Positions 13,555 through 63,003 of a stretch of DNA of 64,000 nucleotides are shown in pieces (the first letter of the stretch is position 1; each line of letters starts with the position of its first letter). The DNA is from an uncultured Candidatus Saccharibacteria bacterium (GTDB lineage Bacteria; Patescibacteriota; Saccharimonadia; Saccharimonadales; 2-12-FULL-41-12). A program made the translations under genes and the position numbers. The DNA lies in assembly GCA_964404795.1 (NCBI GenBank), contig CAYOLI010000001.1, positions 140,137 through 204,136 on the forward strand, written 5' to 3'. The notes below the pieces were generated by a model. It was not told the DNA's origin and did no database searches. It saw nothing but the letters and a program-made list of their open reading frames with translations.

Positions 13555-13563
13555 TTGTTTATT

Positions 13564-14684: not shown

Positions 14685-14820
14685 CATCTGCCGCTTTAAG
14701 TGGTTATTGACTATGTCGTGTACGTTTAACTCTGGAATTCGGCTAAGCTCTTTTTTACCTTCTCAATCGAATAAATTGTGCTTGAGCTGAAGGGCTTGTT
14801 AAAATCTTCTGGAGCATATA

Positions 14821-15678
14821 TTACCCTAAACTTGTTAGATATTTTCCATAGCCGGATTTTTTTAGGGGTTTGGCGAGATTAGCTAATTGTTCTTCGTTGA
14901 TGAAACCTTGTTCGTAGGCAATCAGTTCTGGAGATCCGATAATTTGCCCCGTCCTTTTTTGTAATACACGGACATAGTCGGTAGCATCGGATAAGCTATC
15001 TATTGTTCCGGTGTCTAACCATACGTCTCCATCGTCTAGCGTTGTAACCTGGAGTTTGCCACGTTTTAAGTACTCTTCATTAACAGATGTAATTTCGAGC
15101 TCGCCTCGTTCGCTTGGCTGAATATTTTTAGCAATTTCCACTACATCGTTATCATAGAAATATAGGCCAACCACAGCATAGTTTGATTTGGGAGCTGTGG
15201 GCTTTTCTTCAATAGATTTTGCCTGCATATTTTTGTCGAACTCGACAACTCCATAGCGCTGGGGGTCGGAAACCTGATAGGCAAATACAACTCCCCCGTT
15301 TGGATCGGTGCAATTTTTGAGAGATTCATCAAGTTCGGCGCCATGAAATATGTTGTCGCCCAGCACAAGTGCTACTTTATCGCTTCCAATGAATTCTTCT
15401 CCTAACATAAATGCCTGAGCAAGGCCATCGGGCGACGGTTGCTGGACATAATTTAAGTTGATGCCCCATTGTGAACCGTCGCCCAAGAGGTGTTGAAAAG
15501 ATGCTTGATCATGTGGTGTAGTAATAATTAGTATATCTTTTATGCCTGCCTGCATGAGGGTACTTAGAGGGTAATAGACCATTGGCTTGTCGTAAATTGG
15601 TATAAGCTGTTTTGATATACCTTTTGTAATCGGATGCAATCTTGTGCCGCTACCTCCCGCTAGAATAATACCTTTCAT
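14821..15678 (-). CDS. rfbA: Glucose-1-phosphate thymidylyltransferase
   Basis: [23 protein letters not shown] and YDKPM.YYPLS are canonical RmlA motifs. Confidence 0.95.
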
Positions 15679-15769
15679 GTTGTTAGGCCCTCCAGGTGTA
15701 GTCGATCATGTCACTTAACATATTTTTCTGCATATTACTTCCAAGAGTATACTATTTTGCTATCTTAAA

Positions 15770-15803
15770 CTCCAACCGTTTATGTTGCCATAAACGGTTG
15801 GAG
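15770..15803. repeat. Perfect 14-bp inverted repeat (hairpin, 6-nt loop)
   Basis: ctccaaccgtttat-gttgcc-ataaacggttggag, read directly. Confidence 0.85.
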
Positions 15804-15882
15804 TAAAGAAACCCTGAAAAATATAAGACTTTAATCTGTGCGATTTAAGCGGTATCTCGATTTTTGAAGAATCGTATCATTT

Positions 15883-15923
15883 ACATGCTCTATTCGTATC
15901 AGCATGATACGAATAGAGCATGT
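15883..15923 (-). terminator. Perfect 19-bp hairpin 20 nt downstream of the DUF2283-like gene
   Basis: (a)catgctctattcgtatca-gca-tgatacgaatagagcatg(t). There is no clear U-tract, so terminator function is uncertain. Confidence 0.4.
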
Positions 15924-15942
15924 GGGCAAGAGGATGTATCTG

Positions 15943-16158
15943 TTATGGCGCAGGGTTTAGCTCGATAGGTATACTTGTGGGCTTTGTGGGAAGCTGGACA
16001 TTTTTTGAAGCAGACAACACCTCAACACCGATGATTTGGCCTGAGTCAGAATAGTCAACTAACAAGTCCTTGGTAATTTTTTTACTAGATTTGTAAGGCG
16101 CCTTGTCGTTTAAGGTTATGTACATGGCATCTACATTTTCGTCATAAGTTATCTTCAT
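15943..16158 (-). CDS. DUF2283-like small protein (putative antitoxin)
   Basis: MKITYDENVDAMYITL...LVDYSDSGQIIGVEVLSASK matches the DUF2283 pattern as I remember it. TAATG 1-nt overlap with the upstream gene. Confidence 0.6.
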   Translation of the reverse strand: MKITYDENVDAMYITLNDKAPYKSSKKITKDLLVDYSDSGQIIGVEVLSASKNVQLPTKPTSIPIELNPAP

Positions 16159-16382
16159 TATTTCTCCAAAAAATATTCTGTTATAACAATAACTATATTA
16201 TCCTCTTTTTTGCATACAACCTCAAGGACCTTATCATCATATATTTTCTGTAACACAATTCTATCTTTGAAAGACTCAGAATTGTGGTCGGGAGACTGTA
16301 CCGTATTAATGACCATATCTTTGGTAATGTTCTTTCGGCTTTTAAGTCGGGCTAAGGCGTGTTCGGAAAATTCAATTTTCAT
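16158..16382 (-). CDS. DUF4258-like small protein (putative toxin)
   Basis: The FSEHALARLKSR.I....V pattern and ~74 aa size fit DUF4258. The start overlaps the rfbD end by 11 nt. Confidence 0.55.
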   Translation of the reverse strand: MKIEFSEHALARLKSRKNITKDMVINTVQSPDHNSESFKDRIVLQKIYDDKVLEVVCKKEDNIVIVITEYFLEK

Positions 16383-17223
16383 TTGTTAAATATTCTTTGA
16401 GGTTTTCTTGCCAGTTGCTTGAAATAAATCCCACCGACTGGATTTTTGATAAATCCAGAGTGCTTTGTAGTGGACGAGGGGCAATGCCTGGCTTGTCTTG
16501 GTAGTATTCTTTGGTTGTTGTGTCGGTTACAGTAAGGTCGTCTCTACCTAGGATATTAAAAATTTCTCTGGTAATATCTGCCCAGCTAGCAGAAGGTCCT
16601 TCATTAGAAATATTATAAGTCCCATAGGCCACTTGGTTGGTCAGTAGATGATCTATTGCACGCACTAACTCGCTGGTAAATGTGAGTCGCCCTATTTGAT
16701 CGCTAACTACGGTTGGAGATATATTTTTGTTAGCTAGGTCAACCATTGTGCGAACAAAGTTATCTCCCCTTCCTACAACCCAGGAGGTTCTTAAGATGTA
16801 ATGTTTGGGAGCCATTTGTATTGCAATGTCTCCAGACGCTTTACTGCAACCATAAACATTTAGAGGGCTGAACGGTTCGTTTTCCAGATGTATTTTTTTC
16901 GTACCATCAAAAACATAGTCGGTAGATATATGCACGATTACAATATTATTTTTTTGTGCTATTGCTGACAAATAAGAGGGTGCAACAGCGTTAACCTGCC
17001 ACGCAGAGATGCGCCCGTTTGGTGTCTCTGCGCCGTCTACATTGGTGTAGGCAGCAGCATTTAGTATGTGTGTTACGTTAGACCAATCGTAGTTTGAGAC
17101 GGAATTCTTAGACGTTATGTCTAACTCGCCAATATCGACTTTTTGAGCAGAGGGGTATTTTAGCTGTAGCTCTTTGCCGAGTTGTCCATTTGCTCCAATA
17201 ATCAGTATTTTCGATTCGTCCAT
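16372..17223 (-). CDS. rfbD: dTDP-4-dehydrorhamnose reductase
   Basis: ILIIGANGQLG Rossmann motif, YGCSKASGD (YxxxK), and position in the rml context. Confidence 0.9.
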   Translation of the reverse strand: MDESKILIIGANGQLGKELQLKYPSAQKVDIGELDITSKNSVSNYDWSNVTHILNAAAYTNVDGAETPNGRISAWQVNAVAPSYLSAIAQKNNIVIVHISTDYVFDGTKKIHLENEPFSPLNVYGCSKASGDIAIQMAPKHYILRTSWVVGRGDNFVRTMVDLANKNISPTVVSDQIGRLTFTSELVRAIDHLLTNQVAYGTYNISNEGPSASWADITREIFNILGRDDLTVTDTTTKEYYQDKPGIAPRPLQSTLDLSKIQSVGFISSNWQENLKEYLTNEN

Positions 17224-18794
<1,571 letters not shown>

Positions 18795-37112: not shown

Positions 37113-37153
37113 ATACTCCCGGAAAGAGGCGACTCGAATGGGAGTATTTTTTT
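37113..37153 (+). terminator. Rho-independent terminator
   Basis: atactccc...gggagtat forms an 8-bp stem and is followed by a T6-7 run. Confidence 0.6.
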
Positions 37154-37170
37154 GCTACAATAAACAAGCC

Positions 37171-37929
37171 ATGAAAGAGTCACTAGTAATCGTAAATAAA
37201 TTGGTCAAAAAATATGGACCAAAAACGGCAGTTAATAAAATTAGTTTCAAGGTCGGCCGTGGTGAGATTTTTGGCATACTAGGGCCAAATGGGGCGGGCA
37301 AAACTACAACTCTGGAGATGATGGAAACGCTTAGGGGTATTGATGGAGGATCGGTTAGTATTGATGGCATCGATGTTGCAACAAATCCGCAATATATCAA
37401 ATCCATTATCGGAGTTCAGCCACAATCATCTTCTTTCGAGGAAAAAACCAAGTTATTTGAACTTATTCAATTTTTCGCTTCAACTTATGGGGAGAAAGTT
37501 AATGCTGTAGAGCTACTAGACAAAGTGCAACTTTCTGAATACGCCAAAAGTTATCCAGAACAATTATCTGGCGGACAAAGGCAACGCTTTTCAATTGCTG
37601 TGGCGCTGGTTCATAATCCAAAAGTATTTTTTTTGGATGAGCCGACAACAGGTCTTGATCCGCAGGCCAGACGTAATTTGTGGGACTTGATAAACCAGAT
37701 TAGAAAAAGTGGAGTAACTGTGATTATGACAACCCATTATATGGATGAGGCAGAACTGCTGTGCGATAGAGTGGCGGTGATGGATGAGGGTAAAATTGTT
37801 GCTCTGGATAGCCCAAAAAATCTGATAAAAGGATTACTAAAAAAAGGGTTCAAAAAAGAACAGCATGTCGAGCAGGCAAATTTGGAAGATGTGTTTATTG
37901 ATCTAACAGGCAAGGCGCTTCGAGAATAG
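37171..37929 (+). CDS. ABC transporter ATP-binding protein (ABC-2 subfamily)
   Basis: GPNGAGKTTT, LSGGQRQR and FFLDEPT motifs. Start at ATG 37171, because the upstream part of the ORF lies in the terminator. Confidence 0.9.
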   Translation: MKESLVIVNKLVKKYGPKTAVNKISFKVGRGEIFGILGPNGAGKTTTLEMMETLRGIDGGSVSIDGIDVATNPQYIKSIIGVQPQSSSFEEKTKLFELIQFFASTYGEKVNAVELLDKVQLSEYAKSYPEQLSGGQRQRFSIAVALVHNPKVFFLDEPTTGLDPQARRNLWDLINQIRKSGVTVIMTTHYMDEAELLCDRVAVMDEGKIVALDSPKNLIKGLLKKGFKKEQHVEQANLEDVFIDLTGKALRE

Positions 37930-37932
37930 CTT

Positions 37933-39048
37933 ATGAAGAATAATTTGCGACAGAATTTATTGCCGATAGTAACGTTTGCAAAAGTTGATATTAAACGACT
38001 ATTTAGAGACAAGGTAGCGATTTTTTTTGTTTTCTTTTTCCCTCTGATTTTTTTGGTAGTTTTTGGCAGTATTTTCAAAAATGATTCTGATATGACCTTT
38101 AGGGTAGCGATTATCAATGAGTCATCTCAACCAGTAGCCAAAGATTTTGCGAATCAGCTGGCGAATATTAAATCATTTAAAGTTGATAATTCGGGGCTTA
38201 GTGTAGACCAGGCAAAAACTAAGATGAACAGAGGACAAATCGATGCCACAATACTGCTGCCACCCGAATTTGGAGTAACCGAGAATAATCTACCAAAGGG
38301 CCAGGCGATCGTTTTATATGACCAAAACAACGAGCAGGCCGGTCAAACTCTCGGCACAATACTGCAAGGAATTTTTAAAGATGCTAATGAAAAAGTTGTA
38401 TCATCGCCACAACCTTTTACGGTAATAGCTCGTTCGACTGCCACTAAAGGACTAACACAATTTGACTATATATTTTCTGGCATTTTGGGTTTTACCTTGT
38501 TGTCTCTAGGAATTTTTGGCCCAACCAATGCTTTTCCTAGATTGAAACAAAGAGGTGTTTTACGCCGATATAATACAACCACTCTAAAGGTCTGGCAGTA
38601 TTTTGTGGGCAATGTTCTGTCTAACGCAATTTTAGGTATTATGGCTACTGCTCTTATGTTCACTTTTGCGATTACTGTCTTTGGGCTCTCAATGAGGGGA
38701 AACTATTTGAATTTACTTCTAGTTGTGGTGCTCGGTGCGATATTGCTATTTGGGATCGGCTTAGCAATTGGTGGATGGGCAAAAAACGAAAACCAGGCCG
38801 CTCCTATTGCGCAGATTATTGTTTTGCCGATGATGTTTTTGTCGGGTGTATTTTTTCCGACCTTTTTAATGCCTCAATTTTTGCAAAATATCACCAAGTT
38901 TATACCCTTGACTCCAGTTGTTGATTCTATAAGGTTAATTATTACGGAAAACGCTGGGCTTGCATCGCTAGGACCTCAGCTAGCGATAATGCTGGGTTGG
39001 TTGGTGGTAGTTTACGCGTTAGCTTTTAAAATATTTCGTTGGGAATAG
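37933..39048 (+). CDS. ABC-2 transporter permease
   Basis: TM1, then a ~130 aa outside loop, then 5 TM segments. Coupled to the ATPase by a 3-nt gap. Confidence 0.8.
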   Translation: MKNNLRQNLLPIVTFAKVDIKRLFRDKVAIFFVFFFPLIFLVVFGSIFKNDSDMTFRVAIINESSQPVAKDFANQLANIKSFKVDNSGLSVDQAKTKMNRGQIDATILLPPEFGVTENNLPKGQAIVLYDQNNEQAGQTLGTILQGIFKDANEKVVSSPQPFTVIARSTATKGLTQFDYIFSGILGFTLLSLGIFGPTNAFPRLKQRGVLRRYNTTTLKVWQYFVGNVLSNAILGIMATALMFTFAITVFGLSMRGNYLNLLLVVVLGAILLFGIGLAIGGWAKNENQAAPIAQIIVLPMMFLSGVFFPTFLMPQFLQNITKFIPLTPVVDSIRLIITENAGLASLGPQLAIMLGWLVVVYALAFKIFRWE

Positions 39049-41445: not shown

Positions 41446-43044
41446 ATGCGTAGACGCATTTTTGCAGTTTCAATTTTCATAGTATTAGCAATTTTTACGA
41501 ACAATGCACTAGCAGAGTCGCCAGTAAGTTCTGAAAACATCGATAGTTTTGATAGCCAGATTTTCATTAGCCCAGAAAATGTGGCTAACATTACAGAAAC
41601 CATTGTTTATAATTTTGGTTCTAGCGTTCGGCACGGTATTTATCGAGATATACCATACGATTACTCTGGAAGTAACGGGGAAAAGTATTCGTTAGCAGTA
41701 GAGTTTTTAGGAGCGACTAACCAAGACGGAAAGAGTGTCAAGTCCGAAACGAGTCGCACAAGCGGCAACTTTAGAATTAAGCTGGGAGATCCAGACAAAA
41801 CTGTAACCGGCAAACAGGTATATACCATTAAGTACAAATTGTGGCCAGTCGTAACTCAAAAGGATGGCAGTGGTTTTGTAAACCTTGACATTGTTGGTAC
41901 CGGCTGGCAGGTGCCAATTAATCGCGTTAGCGCAACTCTAAGTTTTTCTGGGAGTGCCACGCTCGGCAATTTGGCTTGCTTTAGTGGTAAGCAGGGTTCT
42001 ACCAGCCAGAATTGTTTTTTGCGAGGAGGCAAAGTAGAGGCCGTTAACTTACAGCCGTACGAAGGGCTAACAATTAACGGGACATTACAACCCGACTATA
42101 TTACCGGAAAGTATTTAGAGCCAGGCAAATCGCGCCCTCTAACGAAAGACGATTATATAGGCATAGCAATTCCAGTTTTGATTGGTGTGGTTTTTGGAGC
42201 GTTTGGTCTGGTAAAACTTTTGCGGACCCTGCGCGAGAGAGGTCGTAAAAAACATCAGACAATAATTGCTGAATACGAACCTCCAGAGGGACTAACTCCT
42301 GCCCAAATAGGGCATTTAATAGACGATAAATCGGGAACTACCGAAATAACTTCGATGTTAGTTCACATGGCGGTGAAGGGATATATAAAAATTGAGCAAA
42401 CGCGGCCAAAACGACTCTTTTCAAAGGCAAAATATTCTTTGCATAGGGTTAAAGAGAGTGATGAAGGGCTTGATTTGAATGAGAAATCGCTTTATTCGGC
42501 GATATTTGAAGATGCGATTGATAACGTTATGGAAGTTGATCGACTAGATAAGTCAAAAATGTCGGTTACAACCAAGGCAATTTATTCTAGCATCGAAAAA
42601 TCACTGCGCGATAAGGGGTATTATGGAAGTTTTTTGAGTGAGCCGGGTATTGTTGCTAAACTTCTTGATTCTGGGAACATGACTGACGAGGGTGCTAAGG
42701 AGTGGGCAAAAGTTGAAGGGTTTAAACTGTACCTGAGCGTGGTAGAGAAAGATCGGCTAAAGTTTAGCGATGCGCCAGAAAAAACACCAGAGTTATTTAA
42801 TCGTTTATTGCCATATGCTATTGCACTAGGAGTTGAGAAACAGTGGGCAAAACAGTTTAAGGGAATAGATGTTTCTCCTGCAACAGATTGGTATGTGGGG
42901 TCTTATGCTGGTTTTAGCGCAGGAAGCTTGGCTAGCGATATTGGTAGTAGTTTTGCAACAGTCGTCAGTAGCAACTCTAGCGTTTCTAGCTCTGGTGGAT
43001 CTTCGGGTGGTGGTTTTGGCGGTGGAGGTGGCGGGAGCTGGTAG
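41446..43044 (+). CDS. DUF2207-family membrane protein
   Basis: Signal peptide, extracytoplasmic beta domain (I.SFDS.I.I......YRDIP), TM segments, and a Gly-rich tail SSGGSSGGGFGGGGGGSW. Confidence 0.7.
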   Translation: MRRRIFAVSIFIVLAIFTNNALAESPVSSENIDSFDSQIFISPENVANITETIVYNFGSSVRHGIYRDIPYDYSGSNGEKYSLAVEFLGATNQDGKSVKSETSRTSGNFRIKLGDPDKTVTGKQVYTIKYKLWPVVTQKDGSGFVNLDIVGTGWQVPINRVSATLSFSGSATLGNLACFSGKQGSTSQNCFLRGGKVEAVNLQPYEGLTINGTLQPDYITGKYLEPGKSRPLTKDDYIGIAIPVLIGVVFGAFGLVKLLRTLRERGRKKHQTIIAEYEPPEGLTPAQIGHLIDDKSGTTEITSMLVHMAVKGYIKIEQTRPKRLFSKAKYSLHRVKESDEGLDLNEKSLYSAIFEDAIDNVMEVDRLDKSKMSVTTKAIYSSIEKSLRDKGYYGSFLSEPGIVAKLLDSGNMTDEGAKEWAKVEGFKLYLSVVEKDRLKFSDAPEKTPELFNRLLPYAIALGVEKQWAKQFKGIDVSPATDWYVGSYAGFSAGSLASDIGSSFATVVSSNSSVSSSGGSSGGGFGGGGGGSW

Positions 43045-43161
43045 TTGCCTACGGATTTTTTGTGGATAAAATATTTTAGTATATACCCTATCTTATAATA
43101 TAATAAAAATCGTAAGCGTATTCACACGCCTTTGTGGGCGTTGGTAAGAGTATTAGGGTAA

Positions 43162-46100
43162 ATGAATAAACAAATAAAGAAGGATAGTCAAGGACAAGCC
43201 AATAACCTTGTTGGCATTATCTATAAAAGATGTATGTTCTTGATAAAAAAGACGTTTACTTTTTTGGACTTTTTTGCAGGGATTGTTTGGGTACAAGCTG
43301 AAAAAGCATTAGGTTTCTTCTGGAAATACGTAAAAATACTAACGGCAAGGGCTAGGGTTTTTGCACTTATCTTGGCAAGGTTGACATTGCTGTATACAAA
43401 GAGAATATACAAAGCATTGCACCATCATTTGGCATATAGACCACACGTGCACTTGTCTAATAAATATCAGAAATATAACGCTTGGCATGAGTGGGATAAA
43501 CACAAGATAGTACATCTCGCAGTGTTTGTCTGCTATGCGATAATTGTTGGTGCCTTCGTAATTAGTTCTTATCAAAGAGTGTTAGCGCTTTCCGATTTGT
43601 TTAATAACTGGAATTTTAGCTCTCCTGGGGATTACACACTAGATTCAGGGGTAGAGACGAGTGGCAGTAGTGTTCGACTAAAGGCCCAAAACTATATCAC
43701 CGATGGTGATACGAAGGCGCTATATCATCTAGACGAGACGTCGGGTACAAATGCCAGCGATAGTTCGGGCAGCGGCAACGATGCAACCGTTAATGGTGGA
43801 TCGTTTGCGGCCGGCAATCTCAACAATGGTCTAGCGCTCAATGGGTCTAGTGGATTGGCTGTTGCTCCCGACACACCATCCCTCTCGTTGTCTCAGACAA
43901 ATACTTTAGAAGCATGGACTAAGTTTTCGTCTAATTTTAATGCTGGAAGCCACGAACATAAACAAGGAGTAATAGATAAAGGATCTTATAAGCTATATTA
44001 CGATCAAGAAACAGGTAAAGTGACTTACGAATTAGCAAATAACTCAGCTAATACATGGACTCAGCAGGCAGGTAACGACATAAAAGGTAGCTGGGATTTA
44101 AACGGCAAGCCGATAATTAATGACCAAGTAATAATTGCTGGCAATTTGTATGTTGGTCTTGGCAATGCAGTGGGTGACGCTGAGGTCTGGAAGTGGGATG
44201 GCAGTACCTGGACAATGGTAGGAGGAGATGGAAAAAATAGTAGTTGGCCTGACCAGACGTATGAAAATGTAAAAAGCTTGGCTGCTAATGGCAATACTTT
44301 ATATGCTGGGCTGGGTTCGACCGTTGGTGATGGGGAAGTTTGGAGCTGTAATACTGCAACCGGATGTACGACCTGGACCAAGATTGGTGGCGATGGTATT
44401 AACAGTAGTTGGCCCGTGAATGTGTACGAAGAGGTTAGCTCGATGGTTACTGTAGGAGGCAATTTATATGCCGGACTTGGCCTGAGCGCCGGTGATGGGG
44501 AAGTTTGGAGCTGTAATACTGCAACCGGATGCACGACCTGGACCAAGATTGGTGGCGATGGCATTAACAGCGGTTGGGGCTCAGAAATTGAAGCGGTATA
44601 TTCTCTGACAACAGATGGTTCAAAGATATATGCTGGACTGGGTAATACGACTGGTGATGCAGATCTGTATAGCTGGAACGGAAGCGCCTGGACCAAGATT
44701 GGTGGCGATGGCATTAACAGCGGTTGGGCTGCTAGCACATACGAATATGTGTTTAGTTTGCGCTATTTTGGTGGTAACTTATACGCTGGTTTAGGCGCAA
44801 CAGCTGGCGATGCCGAGGTCTGGCGCTGGAATGGCAGTACCTGGACTCAGATTGGCGGGGATACGCTAAATTCGTCTTGGGATGCAACCTCCTATGAAAT
44901 GGTTTATAGCTTGACCGATGATGGCACTAATTTATACGCAGGACTAGGTAATACGGCTGGCGATAACGAGGTATGGCGATGGAACGGCAGTGCCTGGACC
45001 AAGATCGGCGGTGATGGAGTGAATGGTAGTTTTACAAACACTCACACTATTGTGCAAACGTTAGTGTATGGAAATGGAAAGCTGTATGCGGGGATTAGTG
45101 CAGCGTCTAATAATGCCGAAGTTTGGAGTTGGGACGGCAGTACTTGGACTCGTTTTGGTGGAGGATACATTAACAAAAGTTGGGGTTACTTTAACCTTCA
45201 GGATGTTGAGACAATGACGGTCTCTGGTGATTATTTATATGCAGGTACTGGGTACACTGTGGCCGGAAATGCACAGGTTTGGAGGTTTGATGGTAACTCA
45301 TGGGAAATAGTTGGTGGACAGGGATTAAATGGTAGCTGGTCACCGAGTACTTATGAGAACGTACTGAGTATGATAAGTGTTGGGGGCAATTTGTATGTTG
45401 GTTTGGGCACAACGGTAAATGATGGGGAGGTCTGGCGCTGGGATGGAAGTTCTTGGACTCAAATTGGCGGGGATGGCTTAAATAGTGGTTGGGGCGCTAG
45501 CTATGAAGAGGTTAGCTCTTTGGCTACCTACGGGGGGTATCTTTATGCGGGGCTTGGTAACTCGGCCAATGATGCTGAGGTCTGGCGCTGGAATGGCAGT
45601 GCCTGGACCAAGATTGGTGGTGATAGCATTAATGGTGGCTGGACTACTAACTACGAGAGGGTTAGTTCCATGGCAATTTATAACGGACAACTTTATGCTG
45701 GTTTAGGTGTAACAGCTGGTGACGCCGAGGTTTGGAGTTGGAATGGTAGTACTTGGACCAAAGTAGGTGGCGATGGGGTAAATAGTAGTTGGAATCTGGT
45801 TTATGAACAAGTTGAGTCAATGATTGCGTACAATGGTAAGTTATACGCTGGACTTGGTAACAGTACCGGCGATGCCGAAGTTTGGCAATACGACGGCTCT
45901 AGCTGGTCGCAAATTGGTGGCGATGGGGTAAATAGCAGTTGGTTCGACGGACAGTTTGAGCAAGTAAAAACCATGACAGTTTATAACGGCAAGCTATACG
46001 CTGGTCTGGGCAACAGTGCTGGTGACGGCGAGGTGTGGGAGTACAGTGACGGTGCCTGGACAAAGGTTGGCGGTGGCGGGACAAACAGTAGTTGGGCGGC

Positions 46101-49100
46101 TAACGTTATAGAAACCGTACAAAGCTTTAGTGTATATAAGGGGAAGCTCTACGCAGGGCTTGGTAATACCGCGAATGCAGATGCGTCTGTTTGGTCGTAC
46201 GGCAATAATGGCTTTTTACAATCAACAACAACCTCTCAAGATACCAACTGGCATCACATTGCTGCAACTTATGATGGCATCACGATGAAGTTATATATTG
46301 ATGGTAGCTTGAATGCGCAAACGTCTGCTTCTTTATCTATGCCTGATTCGGCCGAGCCATTACTGCTGGGTTCAACTTTTGGGGCCTCAGAGGCAGGGTG
46401 GTCTCAAGGGTATTTTGAGGGCTCAATAGATGAGGTAAGGATTAGTAGTGTTGCCAGGAACGCTTTCACATCGAAACCGTACAAATCGACGGCGCAGACT
46501 GTTACGCTGAACACCCCAGTTCGCACCAGTGGAGTGTGGCATTGGGACGATCTAACTTCTTCCGAAACACTAAATGGTGGATCGATAACTTACCGTATTT
46601 CGGATAACGGGGGTACTACCTGGAAGTATTGGGATGGTAGTAGCTGGGCTACCTCGGGAAATAATACCGAAGCGAACTCAATCTCGGTAATTAGTGCACA
46701 TATTGGGTCTTTTCCCGTTACCTTTGATGGTATCAAATGGCAAGCAATTTTGAAGGGCGACGGTACGCAGCAAGTACAGTTAAATACGGTTGGACTTACC
46801 GCAACCTCGGACCTAACAGAGCCCACTACTAATGCGGCCAATATTGTTGGCTTTAAGGCATATTCTGGCTCTGCTTTAGCAAACAATGCTTGGACTAATG
46901 GTAGCTCTCCTTACTTCTCATGGGACGCAGGGGTAGATACTGACTCTGGAATTAAAGGATATTGTTTGTATCTAGGCACAGACAATACGGCCGATCCAGT
47001 TACTACCAAAGGTGTACTTGGGGTTAGTCCTGTTTCTACTGGCGGTCATTGCCAGTTTATTGTCGCACCAAGCAATATAGATACGGCAGTATCTGGATAT
47101 ATTGCTTCGCCCCTAGCTTCCTCGAACAATCCTTATTACTTAAATATTAAAGCCATCGACAATGCCGGGAACGTAGCTAGTAGTACTACGCAGTTTCAAT
47201 TTAGGTTTGACAATACACCTCCCTCGAATCCTACATACATAACAGCCCCTTCTGGGTTTATTAATACCAAAGACGTAACACTAACATGGCCAACTACTGG
47301 AGGAGACGCCCCAGCAGACGCTAATTCTGGCGTTGCAGGACTACAATATCGAATCAATGGGACTAGTTGGTATGGTGATTTACACACCGGGTTGGGTGAT
47401 ATAAATGATTTATTAACTAATGACGGCGCATACACTACAGCAGTTTCTCCTGATTATACTAATTTGAATGATGGTATTAATACGGTTTACTTTAGAACAT
47501 GGGATCAAGCGGGTAATGTAACAAGCTCTTATGTGACTGCCGCAGTTAAGCTCAATACTTCCGGAGCTCCTAGTGAGCCCCAGAATTTGATTGTTTCGCC
47601 TGTTACCAACAACACTAATGCATTTTCTTTCAGTTGGCAGGCGCCAAATACTTTCGTGGGGGACGCAAATAATATTACGTATTGCTATACGATTAATAGC
47701 TTGCCGTCAGTCAGTAACTGTACATTTACAGGTGCTGGAGTTACTTCTCTTGGATCGGGCCCTTATGCTACTCAGCCAGGCCAGAACACTTTGTATTTGG
47801 TCGCTAAAGATGAGTCGGGCAACATTAACTACGCAAGTTATGCATCAATCAATTTTACAGCTAACACCCCTTCTCCTGGCATGCCAACTAACACCGATCT
47901 TGTGGATGTTTCCATAAAGACAACTAGCAATTGGCGGTTAGCACTTACATGGGACCAGCCCTCTTACGTAGGTGCAGGTATAGCGAGCTATAAGGTGTAT
48001 AGATCGACAGATAATATTAGTTTCTCGTTTGTTGGTAGTAGTTCGAGCACAACCTACATAGATGCCGGTCTTAGCCAGCAAAGGTACTACTATCGGGTAG
48101 CTGCTTGTGATAGCACCAATAACTGTGGTGCTTATGGAACGGTGGTCAGCGGGATACCGACAGGTAAATTTACCAGCCCGGCCATTCTTGTTTCGGACCC
48201 AGTGGTATCGAATATTACCACCAAAAAAGCTACTATTAGATGGAGTACCGACAGATCAAGCGATTCAAAGATTGCTTTTGGAACATCCAGTGGGAACTAT
48301 AGCCCGTCAGAGGTATCAATATCGAATCAGACGAGTTCACATCAAATAGAGCTAACCAACTTAAGCGCTGGGACCACTTACTATTTTGTGGCTAAATGGA
48401 CTGACGAAGATGGTAACACTGGCGTTAGCCAAGAATATACCTTTAGGACTGCTCCAGCGCCTACTCTTAAGGAGATATCTGCAACACAGATTGGGCTATC
48501 AAATGCAACAATTGGCTTTACCTCGAAGGACGCTACAAAAATAGACATATTTTATGGTAAGAGCGAAGGATTTGGGGGTGTAAAAAGTATTAATACTTCG
48601 CCATATGAGTCAACCTACGCAGTTGATATTGTTGGGCTTGAAGATGGGTCGAAGTACTTTTATAAATTAGTTGCGCACGATAGCGAGAATAATACTTACG
48701 ATGGAAGCGTAGCGTCCTTTACCACTCCTGCAAGGCCACGTATTAGCGACTTGAGATTTCAGCCGATAACTGGCGAGCCAACCAGCACCCAAGAGGTTAC
48801 GTGGAACACTAATGTTCCTTCGACGTCTATGGTCACCTATGGTAAAGTTGGCTCCGTTGGTGTTGATGTCCTTGATTCAGGATCTGTTACTCAACACAAG
48901 ATAATATTAAGAAACCTAGAAGATGACAGCCAGTATTTCTTGGTGGCCCAAAGTCGAGATAGTGGCGGTAATTTGGCAATTTCAGATAGACAGGAATTCA
49001 AAACTGCCCTAGACACAAGACCACCTAAAATTAGTGACATAATAATCGAGACATCTATTAGAGGAACTGGAGCCGAGGCCAGAGGGCAAGTTGTTGTATC

Positions 49101-49383
49101 ATGGAAAACTGATGAACCGGCAACCAGCCAGGTTGGGTATGGCGAAGGGTCAGATGTAAAGACATTTAATAACAAAACATCAGAAGATGAAGCTCTTGGA
49201 ACCGAACATATTGTAATAGTTTCTGATTTGCCAACATCAAAAGTTTATAGCATTCAGCCACTTTCAAAAGATAAATCGGGCAACCAAGGGGTTGGTGATA
49301 GTCAATCAGCTATTATTGGTCGTGCCTCCGACAGCGTACTGACGATAATTCTTAATGCTCTGCAAAAGGTATTCGGGTATTAG
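43162..49383 (+). CDS. Giant (2073 aa) membrane-anchored surface protein: LamG-like, 14 propeller-type repeats, Fn3-like arrays
   Basis: Uninterrupted 6.2-kb ORF. One TM at about aa 115-136. LamG_3-like motifs (LYHLDETSG...DSSGSGNDAT and WHHIAATYDG...GSIDEVRISS). At least 4 C-terminal Fn3/PAP-N-like modules (ATIRWSTDRSSDSKIAFG..., EVTWNTNVPSTSMVTYG..., VVVSWKTDEPATSQVGYG...). Confidence 0.8.
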   Translation: MNKQIKKDSQGQANNLVGIIYKRCMFLIKKTFTFLDFFAGIVWVQAEKALGFFWKYVKILTARARVFALILARLTLLYTKRIYKALHHHLAYRPHVHLSNKYQKYNAWHEWDKHKIVHLAVFVCYAIIVGAFVISSYQRVLALSDLFNNWNFSSPGDYTLDSGVETSGSSVRLKAQNYITDGDTKALYHLDETSGTNASDSSGSGNDATVNGGSFAAGNLNNGLALNGSSGLAVAPDTPSLSLSQTNTLEAWTKFSSNFNAGSHEHKQGVIDKGSYKLYYDQETGKVTYELANNSANTWTQQAGNDIKGSWDLNGKPIINDQVIIAGNLYVGLGNAVGDAEVWKWDGSTWTMVGGDGKNSSWPDQTYENVKSLAANGNTLYAGLGSTVGDGEVWSCNTATGCTTWTKIGGDGINSSWPVNVYEEVSSMVTVGGNLYAGLGLSAGDGEVWSCNTATGCTTWTKIGGDGINSGWGSEIEAVYSLTTDGSKIYAGLGNTTGDADLYSWNGSAWTKIGGDGINSGWAASTYEYVFSLRYFGGNLYAGLGATAGDAEVWRWNGSTWTQIGGDTLNSSWDATSYEMVYSLTDDGTNLYAGLGNTAGDNEVWRWNGSAWTKIGGDGVNGSFTNTHTIVQTLVYGNGKLYAGISAASNNAEVWSWDGSTWTRFGGGYINKSWGYFNLQDVETMTVSGDYLYAGTGYTVAGNAQVWRFDGNSWEIVGGQGLNGSWSPSTYENVLSMISVGGNLYVGLGTTVNDGEVWRWDGSSWTQIGGDGLNSGWGASYEEVSSLATYGGYLYAGLGNSANDAEVWRWNGSAWTKIGGDSINGGWTTNYERVSSMAIYNGQLYAGLGVTAGDAEVWSWNGSTWTKVGGDGVNSSWNLVYEQVESMIAYNGKLYAGLGNSTGDAEVWQYDGSSWSQIGGDGVNSSWFDGQFEQVKTMTVYNGKLYAGLGNSAGDGEVWEYSDGAWTKVGGGGTNSSWAANVIETVQSFSVYKGKLYAGLGNTANADASVWSYGNNGFLQSTTTSQDTNWHHIAATYDGITMKLYIDGSLNAQTSASLSMPDSAEPLLLGSTFGASEAGWSQGYFEGSIDEVRISSVARNAFTSKPYKSTAQTVTLNTPVRTSGVWHWDDLTSSETLNGGSITYRISDNGGTTWKYWDGSSWATSGNNTEANSISVISAHIGSFPVTFDGIKWQAILKGDGTQQVQLNTVGLTATSDLTEPTTNAANIVGFKAYSGSALANNAWTNGSSPYFSWDAGVDTDSGIKGYCLYLGTDNTADPVTTKGVLGVSPVSTGGHCQFIVAPSNIDTAVSGYIASPLASSNNPYYLNIKAIDNAGNVASSTTQFQFRFDNTPPSNPTYITAPSGFINTKDVTLTWPTTGGDAPADANSGVAGLQYRINGTSWYGDLHTGLGDINDLLTNDGAYTTAVSPDYTNLNDGINTVYFRTWDQAGNVTSSYVTAAVKLNTSGAPSEPQNLIVSPVTNNTNAFSFSWQAPNTFVGDANNITYCYTINSLPSVSNCTFTGAGVTSLGSGPYATQPGQNTLYLVAKDESGNINYASYASINFTANTPSPGMPTNTDLVDVSIKTTSNWRLALTWDQPSYVGAGIASYKVYRSTDNISFSFVGSSSSTTYIDAGLSQQRYYYRVAACDSTNNCGAYGTVVSGIPTGKFTSPAILVSDPVVSNITTKKATIRWSTDRSSDSKIAFGTSSGNYSPSEVSISNQTSSHQIELTNLSAGTTYYFVAKWTDEDGNTGVSQEYTFRTAPAPTLKEISATQIGLSNATIGFTSKDATKIDIFYGKSEGFGGVKSINTSPYESTYAVDIVGLEDGSKYFYKLVAHDSENNTYDGSVASFTTPARPRISDLRFQPITGEPTSTQEVTWNTNVPSTSMVTYGKVGSVGVDVLDSGSVTQHKIILRNLEDDSQYFLVAQSRDSGGNLAISDRQEFKTALDTRPPKISDIIIETSIRGTGAEARGQVVVSWKTDEPATSQVGYGEGSDVKTFNNKTSEDEALGTEHIVIVSDLPTSKVYSIQPLSKDKSGNQGVGDSQSAIIGRASDSVLTIILNALQKVFGY
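44100..46210 (+). repeat. 14 tandem in-frame ~50-57-aa coding repeats
   Basis: Consensus is (K/N)LYAGLGN(S/T)xGDAEVW(R/S)W(N/D)GSxWTKIGGDG(I/V)NSSW...YExVxS. 44326..44400 and 44491..44565 differ at only 2 of 75 positions by my reading. cctggaccaagattggtggcgatggcattaacagcggttggg recurs at 44537 and 44687. Confidence 0.9.
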
Positions 49384-49387
49384 TGAT

Positions 49388-50164
49388 ATGTCTGACGAAG
49401 TATTAATAAAAGTAGAAAAAGTTTTTCAAAATTTCGCGATAGAGGAAGGCACTATTGAGATTATTAAAGACGTAAGTTTCGAAGTGCGCAGTAATAGTTT
49501 TAATATTATTTATGGCGCAAGTGGATCTGGTAAATCGACTTTGCTTAATATTTTGAGTGGATTACAGACGCCATCTAAAGGCCGAGTGCTATTTAAGGGC
49601 CAAGATGTTTATGCTTTCTCCCCAGACGAGCTTGCTCATTTCCGCGCTAACCAGATAGGAATTGTTTATCAATCGAATTATTGGGTACAGAGTTTGAACG
49701 TGCTAGAAAACGTAGCAATTCCTCTATATTTTTTAGGATATACCCGCTCCTCTGCTATGCAGAAAGCACTATCTGCTCTAGAAAAAATCGATATGCAAAG
49801 TTATGCAAAAAAGTACCCAATTCTACTGTCTGGCGGTGAGCAACAAAGAGTTGCAGTTGCTAGAGCCATTGTAAACGACCCGATGTTTATCATTGCGGAC
49901 GAGCCAACAGGAAGCTTAGACAGCAAAAACGGCGATAAAGTTATGGACTTGTTAAGGAGTGCGCATAGCGACACTAAACGTACCATTATTTTGGTAACTC
50001 ACAACATGGAATATCTTCCATTGGCGGATAATCTGCTCCACATACAAGATGGAGTGGTCCAAAATCCCGATAGTCAATCTGTTCAGACAATTCCAAGTGA
50101 GATGATAACCTCTCTTAAGCAGCGTCTTGATAAGTTTGCAGCAGCCAAAGAAGAGGAGCAATAA
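49388..50164 (+). CDS. ABC ATPase of the MacB/LolD/FtsE type
   Basis: GASGSGKSTLLN, LSGGEQQRVAVARA and IADEPTGSLD motifs. ATG 49388 lies 4 nt after the giant-gene stop. Confidence 0.9.
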   Translation: MSDEVLIKVEKVFQNFAIEEGTIEIIKDVSFEVRSNSFNIIYGASGSGKSTLLNILSGLQTPSKGRVLFKGQDVYAFSPDELAHFRANQIGIVYQSNYWVQSLNVLENVAIPLYFLGYTRSSAMQKALSALEKIDMQSYAKKYPILLSGGEQQRVAVARAIVNDPMFIIADEPTGSLDSKNGDKVMDLLRSAHSDTKRTIILVTHNMEYLPLADNLLHIQDGVVQNPDSQSVQTIPSEMITSLKQRLDKFAAAKEEEQ

Positions 50165-50167
50165 AAA

Positions 50168-51442
50168 ATGATGTTAAAGAAAATCAAACTTTTTTTGTCG
50201 AATGTGGCTACATGGAGCATGAACTTACTAGGTGCTAATCGTCAGGGCAAGGTTATTTCGCTGGCGATATTAATCCATATAGCATGGCGTAATTTGATTA
50301 GTAAAAAACTTAGATCACTACTTACATTATTTGGAATAATTATCGGAATTGGGGCCATATTTTTTCTATTTTCTTTTGGACTAGGACTACGTAATTTAGT
50401 AACTAATCAGGTAATTGGTGATAAATCGATAAAGGCAATCGATATAAGTACTCCAAATTCTAAGGTTTTGCATCTTGATGCTACGCTTGTGAACAAAGTT
50501 ACGGCCTTGCCTCATGTTGAAAAGGTAGGCAAGGTAATTACATCGCCGGGCAGTGTTAGTTACAAAAAAAGCGAAACTGATGCAGTTGTTTATGGAACCG
50601 ACAAGAACTTCGAGGACTTAAGCTCTCTAAAAATTATAGCTGGGCGGTTAGTTAATAATGATGATGGATTTTCGGTCGTTGTTAACTCGTCACTCCTTAA
50701 GTCGGTTGGCATAAACGACAGCAAGGATGCCGTTGGAAAAAAAATTGACTTAAAAATACCACTTAGCACGAAAGATTCTAATCTAAAAAATATCGACAGA
50801 GAATTTACAATTGTTGGGGTAATTGATTCTGGCTCGGGTGGCGAGCTGTTTACTCCAGTGGGTATTTTTGAAGGCGCAGGTATAGGGTCGTATTCACAAT
50901 TAAAAATAGTAGCCGACGATTCAAATAGCGTACCGTCTCTTCGAAAGCAAATAAGTAGCTTGGGCTATCAAACAGCTTCGCCTATAGATACACTAGATCA
51001 GATTAATCAAATTTTTAAACTCTTTACAATTATTATTGTCGGATTCGGGGCAATTGGTATGGTGGTATCTGTGCTAGGAATGTTTAACACCCTGTCAATA
51101 TCTTTGATTGAAAGGACTAAAGAAATTGGGCTGATGATGGCACTGGGTGCACGAAACCGTGACATGAGTCGATTATTTATTGTTGAGGCAATTCTGTTAT
51201 CGATTGTTGGAGCGATAGTAGGTATAATTTTGGCCTCAATTCTTGGAGAGGTTGTTAACGTCCTTATGAATATGTCGGCAAGGACTCGGGGCGTAACTCA
51301 AAGTTTCGATTTGTTCGCTACTCCTTTATGGTTAATTGGAGCTACTATCGTATTCATGGTGGTCGTTGGCGTTATTGTAGCGTTTTTCCCCTCAAGACGA
51401 GCTGCTAAGATCAACCCAATAGACGCACTACGTCGTGGCTAA
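50168..51442 (+). CDS. MacB/FtsX-type ABC permease
   Basis: TM1, a ~200-aa extracytoplasmic domain, and a C-terminal 3-TM FtsX domain ending ...PSRRAAKINPIDALR. Confidence 0.85.
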   Translation: MMLKKIKLFLSNVATWSMNLLGANRQGKVISLAILIHIAWRNLISKKLRSLLTLFGIIIGIGAIFFLFSFGLGLRNLVTNQVIGDKSIKAIDISTPNSKVLHLDATLVNKVTALPHVEKVGKVITSPGSVSYKKSETDAVVYGTDKNFEDLSSLKIIAGRLVNNDDGFSVVVNSSLLKSVGINDSKDAVGKKIDLKIPLSTKDSNLKNIDREFTIVGVIDSGSGGELFTPVGIFEGAGIGSYSQLKIVADDSNSVPSLRKQISSLGYQTASPIDTLDQINQIFKLFTIIIVGFGAIGMVVSVLGMFNTLSISLIERTKEIGLMMALGARNRDMSRLFIVEAILLSIVGAIVGIILASILGEVVNVLMNMSARTRGVTQSFDLFATPLWLIGATIVFMVVVGVIVAFFPSRRAAKINPIDALRRG

Positions 51443-51512: not shown

Positions 51513-51588
51513 TGGTGGGGCAGGCAGGATTTGAACCTGCGACCAATCGGTTATGAGCCGACTGCTCTAACCCCTGAGCTACTGCCCC
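51513..51588 (-). tRNA. tRNA, anticodon CAU, Ile2(lysidine)-like
   Basis: Hand-folded cloverleaf: GGGGCAG/CTGCCCC, GCTC/GAGC, GTCGG-CTCATAA-CCGAT, GCAGG-TTCAAAT-CCTGC, with an encoded CCA. The anticodon arm and variable region resemble the B. subtilis/E. coli tRNA-Ile2 as I recall them. Confidence 0.85.
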
Positions 51589-51679: not shown

Positions 51680-52144
51680 ATGCTATCAAAAATAAAAAAT
51701 ATTTCTCGCAGTATTCGGATAACACCGTACCTAGAGGTAAGAGTAGTCGGGTTAGTTATTTTTACGATAATTATACTGTTGGTCAGCTGGAGTGGAGTCA
51801 AGGTAATACAGACAAATTATGAACTTGAAAAAAAGATTTCACAGCTTCAAAAAAGAAATACTTTAAAAAAACTTGAAAATGAAAATCTGCGCTTAAAAAA
51901 TACATATTATGAATCCGATCAATATCTGGAGTTAACTGCCAGGCGTCAGTTTAACAAAGCAGCCCCTGGCGAAAAGTTGTTTGTTGTGCCTACGTCTGTC
52001 GCTCTTAGTAAGACCGTTGATCTGCTCAGTGTTGACGACGCTAATCTAGCGTCTAATTCTGCAGAAGTCCAAGCAAAGAAGAGTAAGTTTCAGCAAAATC
52101 TTGAAGATTGGCTGGTGTTTATCTTGCACAAAAACCGTTCGTAA
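51680..52144 (+). CDS. Septum formation initiator family protein (FtsB/DivIC-like)
   Basis: One TM, a coiled coil (LEKKISQLQKRNTLKKLENENLRLKN) and a YLE..AR..... motif. Confidence 0.6.
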   Translation: MLSKIKNISRSIRITPYLEVRVVGLVIFTIIILLVSWSGVKVIQTNYELEKKISQLQKRNTLKKLENENLRLKNTYYESDQYLELTARRQFNKAAPGEKLFVVPTSVALSKTVDLLSVDDANLASNSAEVQAKKSKFQQNLEDWLVFILHKNRS

Positions 52145-52166
52145 GAACTGTTGATATAATAGAAGT

Positions 52167-52499
52167 ATGCAGAAGCTAAAACGCGGGTGGCGCATGGTAC
52201 CATGGCATATTCGAAAACCGGTCGTATTGATTATCGGGCTATTGTTTGTAATTGCGGCTGGATTAACGGGTTGGTTACCTGGGCCGGGAGGTATACCCTT
52301 ATTTCTGATTGGTATTGCCATTTTGGCTACAGAGTTTGTTTGGGCAGAAAAAGCTAGGGACTGGATATTGGATAAGGGCAGAAGCACGGTTGATTATATA
52401 AAAAAACGCAAACATTTACTTGTAATTACTGGTGGATTAATGACCTTGGTACTGGCATCGGCTTTTTTCTTTGCATACAATTTATACATAAGAAGCTAA
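52167..52499 (+). CDS. PGPGW-motif small membrane protein
   Basis: LPGPGGIPLFLIGIAILATEFVWA. Confidence 0.5.
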   Translation: MQKLKRGWRMVPWHIRKPVVLIIGLLFVIAAGLTGWLPGPGGIPLFLIGIAILATEFVWAEKARDWILDKGRSTVDYIKKRKHLLVITGGLMTLVLASAFFFAYNLYIRS

Positions 52500-52557
52500 T
52501 TTTTTGTTAGAATATAATTATTAGGATAAAAACAAATAGCATAACAATTAAATATAG

Positions 52558-53388
52558 ATGTTAAAACTTTTTTCAGTAATTTTTATTAGTGTATTATTTT
52601 TTGCGGGCTATCGGGTGGTTGTTCACTCAGAAGTCGCTCGGAAAACGAATAGTAAAAGTCAAGTCAATCAGTTAGAGAAATATAACTCTCCAAATTTGAT
52701 GAATTTAAAGGGACAAATTCAAAACTCAATTGACTCAAGGCCATCCTTGCAGATTGGAGTAGCGATAATTAATCTAAAAAACGATGAACACGTGTCGCTT
52801 GGTGTTGAGGCCCCGTTTGACGCCGCTAGTACCAACAAGCTATTAACAGCGATATATTTGCTCAAACGTATTGATGATGGAAAAGAATCTCTGAGTACTA
52901 AGGTCGGCAACCATACTATTCAGGCCTATTTACAACAGATGATTGTAGATAGCAACAATGAGGCATGGAAAGATTTAAATGATTATGTTGGTCGAGATAA
53001 TTTAGAAATATTTGCAAAAACTCTTGGCATTACCACTTATTCGTCAGCTACCAATACTATTGCTGCTAATGATGAAGCGAAGATTTTAGCTAGTATTTAT
53101 AGCGGAGAGTTGTCAAAAGATAGTAAGGACAAGTTGCTTGGATACATGGCGCAAGCCGATATAAAAGATTATATTGTTGCAGCCGTTCCAGCGGAATATA
53201 AAGTTTACCATAAAGCTGGCTGGCTTAAAGATCGAGTTCATGATGCTGCAATTATTGATACTGGTCGTGAGGCATTTGTGTTGGTGATATTTTCTAAAGC
53301 ATCGGGTGATTATGACTACAGTGATGGTCAAAAGCTATTTCAGCAAATAACCAAACAAACAATCAACGCCTTTGCTGGAAAAAATTAA
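52558..53388 (+). CDS. Class A beta-lactamase-like serine hydrolase
   Basis: S-x-x-K (ASTNK), an SDN-like motif (DSNN) and a KTG-like motif (HKAGW), with an N-terminal anchor. Confidence 0.65.
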   Translation: MLKLFSVIFISVLFFAGYRVVVHSEVARKTNSKSQVNQLEKYNSPNLMNLKGQIQNSIDSRPSLQIGVAIINLKNDEHVSLGVEAPFDAASTNKLLTAIYLLKRIDDGKESLSTKVGNHTIQAYLQQMIVDSNNEAWKDLNDYVGRDNLEIFAKTLGITTYSSATNTIAANDEAKILASIYSGELSKDSKDKLLGYMAQADIKDYIVAAVPAEYKVYHKAGWLKDRVHDAAIIDTGREAFVLVIFSKASGDYDYSDGQKLFQQITKQTINAFAGKN

Positions 53389-59871: not shown

Positions 59872-59946
59872 TGGTAGCGGGGGCAGGACTCGAACCTGCG
59901 ACCTTGTGGTTATGAGCCACACGAGCTGCCACTGCTCCACCCCGCA
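59872..59946 (-). tRNA. tRNA, anticodon CAU, initiator (fMet)-like
   Basis: (U)GCGGGGTGGAGCAG...GCTCG TGTGG-CTCATAA-CCACA AGGTC GCAGG-TTCGAGT-CCTGC CCCCGC(U)ACCA. It closely resembles E. coli tRNA-fMet, with a 1:72 U-U mismatch and A11. Only two of the three G-C pairs above the anticodon loop are present. Confidence 0.85.
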
Positions 59947-62926: not shown

Positions 62927-63003
62927 TGGTAGCGGCGAGTGGGGTTGAACCACTGACCTCAGGCTTATGAGTCCTGCGCTCTAACCAACTGAGCTACGCC
63001 GCC
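62927..63003 (-). tRNA. tRNA, anticodon CAU, elongator Met-like
   Basis: GGCGGCG TA GCTC AGTTGGTTA GAGC G CAGGA-CTCATAA-GCCTG AGGTC AGTGG-TTCAACC-CCACT CGCCGCT A CCA. The acceptor and D arm resemble elongator tRNA-Met of Firmicutes/E. coli. Confidence 0.85.

Follow-up and report, generated by a model that had tools for sequence, protein, structure and literature searches.

A giant LamG/propeller/Fn3 protein and a MacB-type ABC pair encoded side by side in environmental Saccharibacteria

What does a MacB-type ATP-binding cassette (ABC) ATPase and permease do directly behind a gene for a protein of 2073 amino acids (aa)? The question is raised by a locus in a 64,000-nucleotide (nt) stretch of DNA from an uncultured Candidatus Saccharibacteria bacterium (contig CAYOLI010000001.1, positions 140,137 to 204,136 of the forward strand). 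This whole stretch is called the window here, and positions are counted on it unless another locus is named. Saccharibacteria are tiny and live on other bacteria, to which they are attached. On the plus strand of the window, a gene for a giant protein (43162..49383; open reading frame [ORF] of 2073 aa) is followed by genes for an ABC ATPase (49388..50164; 258 aa; Pfam ABC_tran) and a permease (50168..51442; 424 aa; Pfam MacB_PCD and FtsX). The stop codon of the giant gene (TAG, 49381-49383) is separated from the ATPase ATG at 49388 by 4 nt, and the ATPase stop at 50164 is separated from the permease ATG at 50168 by 3 nt; an alternative ATPase start, an ATG at 49355, would give a protein of 269 aa. 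The best explanation of 43162-51442 is one conserved operon of environmental Saccharibacteria that encodes an exported head-and-stalk protein together with a dedicated type VII ABC complex.

Linkage of the giant gene and the ABC pair across relatives

We scanned one genome per species and found relatives of the giant protein in 348 species genomes, nearly all of them Saccharibacteria; 80 related loci were retrieved from these for comparison. Public data also hold >120 full-length homologues (1933-2101 aa; 53-76% identity over 93-100% of the query), with source names of Candidatus Saccharibacteria, Saccharimonadales, or Patescibacteria. Hence, the giant ORF is no chance reading frame. Different samples yielded up to 14 contigs with the exact window proteins. 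Members of the orthologue family have about 2000-2150 aa and are 41-76% identical, with ~20 collinear full-length clusters at the 50%-identity level.

The ATPase and permease genes adjoined the giant gene in 78 of the 80 loci by tblastn, and the other two loci end <200 nt past the giant gene. In 77 of those 78, the giant and ATPase genes share a strand, and the ATPase gene starts 3-190 nt past the giant gene. When ORFs were called explicitly, the distance from the giant stop codon to the first possible ATPase start was ≤22 nt, or the two genes overlapped, in all 73 of 73 loci, and in 66 loci the permease gene came next after the ATPase gene, the two usually overlapping by 4 nt. This spacing suggests translational coupling, and the giant gene and the MacB-type pair apparently form a tight, translationally coupled unit. 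Within 10 kb on either side, only three clusters of ORFs were near universal: those of the giant protein (81 of 81 loci), the ATPase (79/81), and the permease (74/81), with the few missing ATPases and permeases due to contig ends. The next most frequent neighbor cluster was found in 23 of the 81 loci. The linkage was kept in the two most divergent collinear clusters that we looked up, both at 41% identity, and in a reverse test that started from permease orthologues, the giant gene was upstream in 3 of 3 loci sampled. The loss of linkage that would have refuted the first-pass annotation was not seen.

Consensus scans, with counts at background level, gave no terminator-like or promoter site in the 4-nt and 3-nt junctions; nothing was found that would split the triad into separate transcripts. 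The 117-nt, AT-rich region upstream of the giant gene (43045..43161) holds promoter-like hexamers, TTGCCT-16-TAAAAT, at 43045-43072; these are a pattern match only, from a scan whose counts were likewise at background level. From these features, this region is likely the start of a three-gene transcription unit.

The first-pass annotation had included a fourth gene in the block, which encodes a DUF2207 membrane protein (41446-43044; plus strand; 532 aa; Pfam DUF2207 N- and C-terminal domains) and ends at 43044, 117 nt before the giant ATG at 43162. The four plus-strand ORFs, their lengths, and the gaps of 117, 4, and 3 nt all agreed with our ORF and sequence check. Membership of the DUF2207 gene in the block did not hold up. 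Only 4 of the 81 loci have it as a neighbor of the giant gene, which rules it out of the conserved unit, and from gene order it is a chance neighbor in this genome. Genes for FMN reductase, DivIC (5 loci), PGPGW, and beta-lactamase-like proteins (4 loci) were also considered as members and rejected, as they are not conserved neighbors. Since no other neighbor is conserved and the DUF2207 gene is found in 4 of 81 loci, we concluded that the conserved unit has three genes, not four. At locus L052, where the ATPase gene is displaced, a Beta-lactamase2-type gene sits between it and the giant gene. Two-component genes lie near the triad in some relatives, for example at L004 (9339-9707), L044 (5423-7985), and L003 (18094-18483); the window has none.

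The giant ORF was full length in 70 of the 81 loci, and in most of the remaining 11 it runs into a contig end. At L067 (8038-14261) and L033 (10314-16028), the giant ORF appears interrupted or shortened inside the contig, which could reflect a pseudogene or an assembly error. A second, shorter giant paralogue (~1420-1445 aa) occurs within 10 kb of the main copy at L035 (3118-7455) and L037 (21954-26207). The propeller repeat of the giant protein is also present in differently built proteins of up to 5722 aa. One of these, P0148 (L084, 2965-11499), has 2844 aa with the same propeller repeats in another architecture, and no ABC pair adjoins its gene. This single sample suggests that the linkage is specific to the ~2050-aa orthologue family.

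Architecture of the encoded proteins

The ATPase matched Pfam ABC_tran at 3e-30. LolD, FtsE, the lactococcin-972 group, and MacB were its best NCBIfam models, and it reached the cut-off of none of them. The Walker A Lys, the Walker B Asp-Glu, the signature Ser-Gly-Gly..Gln, the Q-loop Gln, and the H-loop His are invariant in 71 orthologues, which argues that ATP hydrolysis has been retained; from these motifs, the ATPase looks active. In the permease, Pfam placed MacB_PCD at aa 50-264 and FtsX at aa 293-417, and hydropathy gave four hydrophobic segments, near aa 63, 295, 350, and 396, with ~215 aa between the first and the second. The MacB/FtsX topology of one transmembrane (TM) segment, an outside domain, and three further TM segments, as initially read from the sequence, was thereby confirmed. 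The closest NCBIfam models (ADOP, MacB, and LolC/E) all scored below their curated cut-offs, and the closest solved permease chains were YtrF (9o9x), MacB (5lil and 5gko), Spr0695 (5xu1), and LolC. Conservation is highest in TM1, TM2, and the cytoplasmic loop (0.74-0.77) and lower in the outside domain (0.51). The pair has the structural features of the type VII ABC superfamily, namely, the motifs of the nucleotide-binding domain and a four-TM permease with a large domain between TM1 and TM2. In a divergent clade, whose giant proteins are 42-50% identical, the permease has 650-750 aa versus ~410 aa (L072, 17046-19121; L052, 15903-18044; L085, 14206-16452), and the extra ~270 extracytoplasmic residues have no Pfam match. 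The L085 ATPase is also enlarged, to 377 aa.

For the giant protein, a sequence search against solved structures gave no hits, and NCBIfam gave only a sub-threshold match to an OmpL47-type domain. Pfam found Laminin_G_3 (aa 965-1101), Laminin_G_2 (aa 1019-1095), fn3, Pur_ac_phosph_N, and PhoD_N. The earlier domain calls of LamG, Fn3, ABC ATPase, MacB/FtsX, and DUF2207 were borne out by Pfam, and that of propellers was borne out by AlphaFold2. We describe the protein from its N terminus onward, using hydropathy, AlphaFold2 models, and an alignment of 70 orthologues.

The N-terminal region (aa 1-142; 43162..43587) begins with 115 variable, basic, His/Trp-rich residues. The single hydrophobic segment of the protein is centered near aa 126 (about aa 116-139 by hydropathy; helix aa 114-139 in the AlphaFold2 model). 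Just before the helix, at 43414-43506 (aa 85-115), is a motif, HHHxAxRPHxxLxxxxxWYxxWHxWxxHxxVH, that is conserved in close orthologues and missing from the divergent clade, whose N terminus is much shorter. The helix is followed in the window protein by V-L-A142 | L-S-D, a signal peptidase I-like site. Across the 70 orthologues, position -1 is A in 63, position -3 is I, V, A, T, or L in 65, and position +1 is A, L, or S and never P. The n-region is very long (up to ~115 aa), and the uncharged hydrophobic run has the length of a TM segment (median, 23 residues). Because the conserved site after the helix fits the signal peptidase I rule, the giant protein may be cleaved after A142 rather than anchored at its N terminus. 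A cytoplasmic head with a TM anchor had been proposed at first; the single hydrophobic segment stands, and the conserved site makes the anchoring uncertain.

The helix leads into a head in which a propeller array is nested inside a LamG (concanavalin A-like) domain. The N-terminal half of the LamG domain (aa 147-298; 43600..44055; AlphaFold2 predicted local distance difference test score [pLDDT], >90) resumes in the Pfam Laminin_G_3 match, as the C-terminal half (aa 1021-1118; 46222..46515; Laminin_G_3/Laminin_G_2 and AlphaFold2). Between the halves are 14 beta-propeller blades (aa 299-1020; 44056..46221), which correspond to 14 LYAG-type repeats of ~51 aa and are modeled as two tandem seven-bladed propellers. 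The AlphaFold2 model of aa 100-1215 had a pLDDT of 90.5 and a predicted template modeling score (pTM) of 0.84. The best Foldseek matches of the propellers were the tandem seven-bladed Elp2 and Utp21, PorZ (5m11), and the glycoside hydrolase GH74 (6p2l), at 10-13% identity; in these models, the likeness is one of fold, not of family membership. A GH74-like enzyme reading of the double propeller was dropped, as the match is of fold only (13% identity); the invariant residues, which are repeated structural W, G, and D positions, also disfavor it. The propeller region has no DNA-level tandem repeats, which indicates that the array is old. G+C content is locally raised over the repeats at 44000-46000 (0.475 versus ~0.39; GC skew, 0.335), likely owing to their Gly-, Trp-, and Asp-rich composition. 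A 225-aa minus-strand ORF (44061-44738) lies wholly within the giant gene.

The stalk (aa 1119-2052; 46516..49317) consists of about nine immunoglobulin (Ig)/Fn3-like beta-sandwich domains, identified from the Pfam fn3, Pur_ac_phosph_N, and PhoD_N matches and from AlphaFold2. The model of the C-terminal half (pLDDT, 86.5; pTM, 0.36) is a string of Ig/Fn3 beads, and its Foldseek matches were the Ig/Fn3 arrays of titin, gp130, LAR, and GhpA. The protein ends in a tail, AIIGRASDSVLTIILNALQKVFGY (aa 2053-2073; 49318..49380), which is conserved in 70 of 70 orthologues; in the divergent clade it reads ITPKATDNALNLVISNLSQIFGF... The amphipathic helix formed by the last 25 residues (aa 2057-2071 in the AlphaFold2 model) is not packed against the rest of the AlphaFold2 model (pLDDT, ~50) and is, from that model, a candidate docking or anchoring element. 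LPXTG signals are missing from the C termini of all aligned orthologues, and neither an SLH nor a type IX C-terminal domain was detected in the giant protein by Pfam. Judged by C-terminal alignment and Pfam, it is not a sortase- or SLH-anchored surface protein.

Conservation, taken as the frequency of the most common residue in 40-residue windows, is low over aa 1-80 (0.12-0.14) and uniformly high over aa 160-2073 (0.52-0.79). Such uniformity, at 0.6-0.75 over ~1900 ectodomain residues, is what would be expected for a machine part. Across loci, tblastn identity was 42-75% for the giant protein, 41-73% for the ATPase, and 28-76% for the permease.

The triad is bounded downstream by a tRNA-Met gene on the minus strand (51513-51588) that converges on the end of the permease gene. 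It is one of three minus-strand tRNA-Met (CAT anticodon) genes within 12 kb, with the others at 59872-59946 and 62927-63003. Genes for a DivIC-type septum protein, a PGPGW membrane protein, and a Beta-lactamase2-family protein follow at 51680-53388. Upstream, at 37138-39048, a second ABC ATPase gene (263 aa; 29% identical to the triad ATPase) and then a 371-aa ORF look like a separate ABC system.

Proposed coupling of the giant protein to the ABC pair and its alternatives

In type VII ABC systems, movement driven by ATP is relayed to an outside domain, and each system acts together with a dedicated partner, as in FtsEX-EnvC, LolCDE-LolA, MacAB-TolC, and YbbAP-TesA (PMC12646458, PMC7668044, PMC8333309, and PMC5985334). 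According to PMC12646458, all four E. coli type VII systems have a dedicated periplasmic partner. Because the linkage described above is strict, deep, and exclusive, the giant protein is the obvious candidate partner of the pair encoded here. We put the probability that it is functionally coupled to the type VII pair as its extracytoplasmic partner at roughly 55%, from sequence evidence. Under the mechanism that we propose, the pair would be no solute pump; cytoplasmic ATP hydrolysis would move its outside domain, as in FtsEX, LolCDE, MacB, and YbbAP. The giant protein would be the extracytoplasmic client, held or actuated via its conserved end or ends, that is, the N-terminal helix and juxtamembrane region and/or the free C-terminal helix. 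The LamG/double-propeller head would most likely bind a conserved glycan or envelope ligand. If the signal peptidase-like site is used, the layout would be one of head, stalk, and C-terminal attachment, with the ABC permease as the likely socket. With the site unused, the giant protein may have both of its ends at the membrane. Physical contact, the end that is bound, N-terminal cleavage, and the ligand of the head are points that we infer.

A bolder form of this coupling, which we consider improbable at present, makes the triad an ATP-powered surface appendage. The MacB-type complex would be the membrane socket and motor of a fiber tens of nanometers long, the C-terminal helix would hold the fiber after signal peptide cleavage, and ATP cycles would extend, retract, reorient, or release the head. 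The first-pass annotation had raised a role in host or surface attachment. Attachment to a host fits the data poorly: conservation of the ectodomain is close to that of the ABC ATPase, unlike in fast-evolving adhesins, and no such protein is listed in the tables of Southlakia epibionticum (see below). The degree of ectodomain conservation favors a conserved ligand or a structural role over a host-specific adhesin.

Several observations count against coupling. Conservation of gene order can stem from co-regulation alone. The permease and the ATPase reach no curated family cut-off, and hence NCBIfam assigns no subfamily function. At L052, the permease gene directly follows the giant gene (9980-18044), and the ATPase gene (8130-8948, minus strand) is 1 kb upstream on the opposite strand; the operon form is therefore not obligatory. 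At L085, a receiver-domain gene (12564-12941) lies between the giant gene and the ATPase gene. Roughly one locus in four has two-component genes close to the triad, in no fixed place and on no fixed strand: 23 of 81 loci have an OmpR-type response regulator, and a multi-TM histidine kinase is found in 18 of the 81. In monoderm bacteria, MacB-type pairs often serve peptide-antibiotic resistance under two-component control.

These observations bear most directly on a reading in which the genes are merely co-regulated, with the pair serving as an envelope-stress, antimicrobial peptide resistance, or efflux module (YknYZ, Spr0694-0695, or Bce type) that is transcribed together with the giant gene and never touches its product. 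The closeness of the permease to YtrF, MacB, and Spr0695 would fit such a module, as would the nearby regulator and kinase genes, the slight gene separation tolerated at L052 and L085, and the name "ABC-type antimicrobial peptide transport system permease" that the Joint Genome Institute (JGI) has given to some permease orthologues. However, a resistance pump has no obvious reason to keep one 6-kb neighbor down to 41% identity while its other neighbors change. The spacing of the genes suggests translational coupling, the permease has 4 TM segments versus 10 in Bce-type permeases, and Pfam finds no membrane fusion protein gene in the triad. Co-regulation leaves the exclusive linkage of the giant gene and the ABC pair unexplained, and we regard it as unlikely. 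A quite doubtful alternative concerns biogenesis: the pair would pull the signal anchor or cleaved signal peptide of the giant protein from the membrane, a one-off assembly step that releases the mature protein to the surface. The linkage evidence is the same as for actuation. Type VII systems with an established extractor role exist, namely, LolCDE and YbbAP-TesA (PMC8333309; PMC12646458). The signal peptidase-like site follows an unusually long hydrophobic segment (median uncharged run, 23), and the N-terminal region is long, up to ~115 aa, and variable. Cleavage at the site is only predicted, however, and the His/Trp-rich juxtamembrane motif kept in close orthologues suggests a lasting N-terminal function. 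Moreover, we know of no type VII system that extracts a protein TM helix or signal peptide. An extraction role is in any case a variant of coupling, not separable here from actuation.

The giant protein also stands where a membrane fusion adaptor would be encoded. The order of single-pass membrane protein, ATPase, and permease matches yknX-yknY-yknZ and macA-macB, and the giant protein has a single N-terminal hydrophobic helix. By analogy with MacA-MacB or YknX-YknYZ, it would form an extracellular conduit or scaffold for export of a small substrate. Pfam found no HlyD or barrel-sandwich domain in it, however, and its AlphaFold2 models, made up of LamG, propellers, and Ig/Fn3 beads, lack any alpha-hairpin or channel-forming element. 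A monoderm cell, in addition, has no outer membrane to span. With neither a domain nor a fold of adaptor type in the giant protein, we think an adaptor function very improbable, and we retain partnership with the type VII pair as the preferred reading.

Known roles of type VII ABC systems are in cell division hydrolase control, lipoprotein sorting, efflux, and lipid extraction, each via a dedicated partner. The family-wide pairing described here would, if it reflects function, add a new partner class to these systems. Our search of the literature on Saccharibacteria with MacB, FtsX, LamG, or giant proteins found no published description of the conserved triad. Large Fn3/ConA surface proteins in the candidate phyla radiation (PMC13059738) and type VII ABC systems with partners are already known; what would be new is a type VII system with a presumed new class of partner. 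The conserved pairing suggests a powered surface structure that has not been described before, and the surface appendage reading, if true, would mean a new kind of cell surface machine in ultrasmall bacteria. The annotation tables of Southlakia epibionticum, a cultured oral epibiont, list MacB-type pairs; an indirect check of the same tables found no PF13385 (Laminin_G_3) or PF16656 (Pur_ac_phosph_N) protein. The Southlakia transposon sequencing paper does not mention the triad. From the annotation search, the module appears to be absent from this one cultured oral epibiont, and the triad hence seems to be a property of environmental lineages, where it is strongly conserved. It may mark a difference in lifestyle or envelope between the two groups. 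If the pairing is functional, the triad would be a concrete, testable candidate for the way in which Saccharibacteria with reduced genomes make or run their surface. Its three genes offer a clean target for multimer prediction, for proteomics, and for genetic work in naturally competent members of the group.

Comparison with known systems

FtsEX works with EnvC in E. coli and with PcsB, CwlO, or RipC in Gram-positive bacteria and mycobacteria. Like the triad, it has a separate ATPase and a four-TM FtsX-fold permease with an outside domain, and mechanotransmission to a dedicated outside protein is presumed for both. Binding of the FtsEX partner is via helices (PMC7668044); a conserved free helix stands at the C terminus of the giant protein. 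However, the permease scores 35.8 bits against the FtsX_Gpos cut-off of 225 and the ATPase 186.2 against 264.85 for FtsE. The permease has a full ~215-aa MacB_PCD domain, whereas the outside domain of FtsX is small. The giant protein, with its LamG, propellers, and Fn3 domains, has no coiled coil in the AlphaFold2 models and no peptidase, hydrolase, or amidase activator domain by Pfam. By family scores and by the lack of a coiled-coil hydrolase or activator as partner, the triad falls outside FtsEX.

MacAB-TolC, YknXYZ, and Spr0693-0695 share with the triad the permease fold with its outside domain (MacB 5lil and Spr0695 5xu1 are among the closest chains) and the placing of a single-pass membrane protein gene ahead of the ATPase and permease genes. 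They differ in that the upstream protein here is giant and beta-rich and the ATPase is not fused to the permease. MacAB and YknXYZ encode an HlyD-family adaptor with the pump, whereas Pfam found no HlyD-type adaptor domain in the giant protein, the DUF2207 protein, or the downstream proteins; hence, the triad is not a member of this group.

LolCDE-LolA and YbbAP-TesA act on a membrane-embedded moiety that is passed to an outside partner (PMC8333309; PMC12646458), and the triad is of type VII as well. LolD is the best NCBIfam match of the ATPase, and the permease aligns end to end with LolC/E. However, the scores are far from those of equivalogs (206.7 versus 307.75 bits for LolD; 62.2 versus 362.45 bits for lolCE), and a single permease gene is found here in place of the two permease subunits of LolCDE, which sets the triad apart from that family. 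The organism is monoderm, and what the pair acts on would be a protein helix in place of acyl chains.

BceAB-type systems have a ten-TM permease, with the outside domain between TM7 and TM8 and a BceRS-type two-component system adjoining. The triad is not of this type, as its permease has 4 TM segments and no two-component genes lie in the window.

Surface proteins of >1,500 aa with Fn3/ConA domains have been noted in Absconditicoccaceae (PMC13059738). The giant protein resembles these and other large head-and-stalk proteins, such as PorZ and GhpA, in its putative export signal, its binding-type head, and its Ig/Fn3 repeats. Its fold matches PorZ, a double-propeller protein of type IX secretion, and the base of the GhpA grappling hook, an Ig array; the likeness to both is of fold only, at 10-13% identity. 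The giant family differs from all of these in being unusually conserved in length and sequence, and it alone among them is constantly paired with a MacB-type ABC system.

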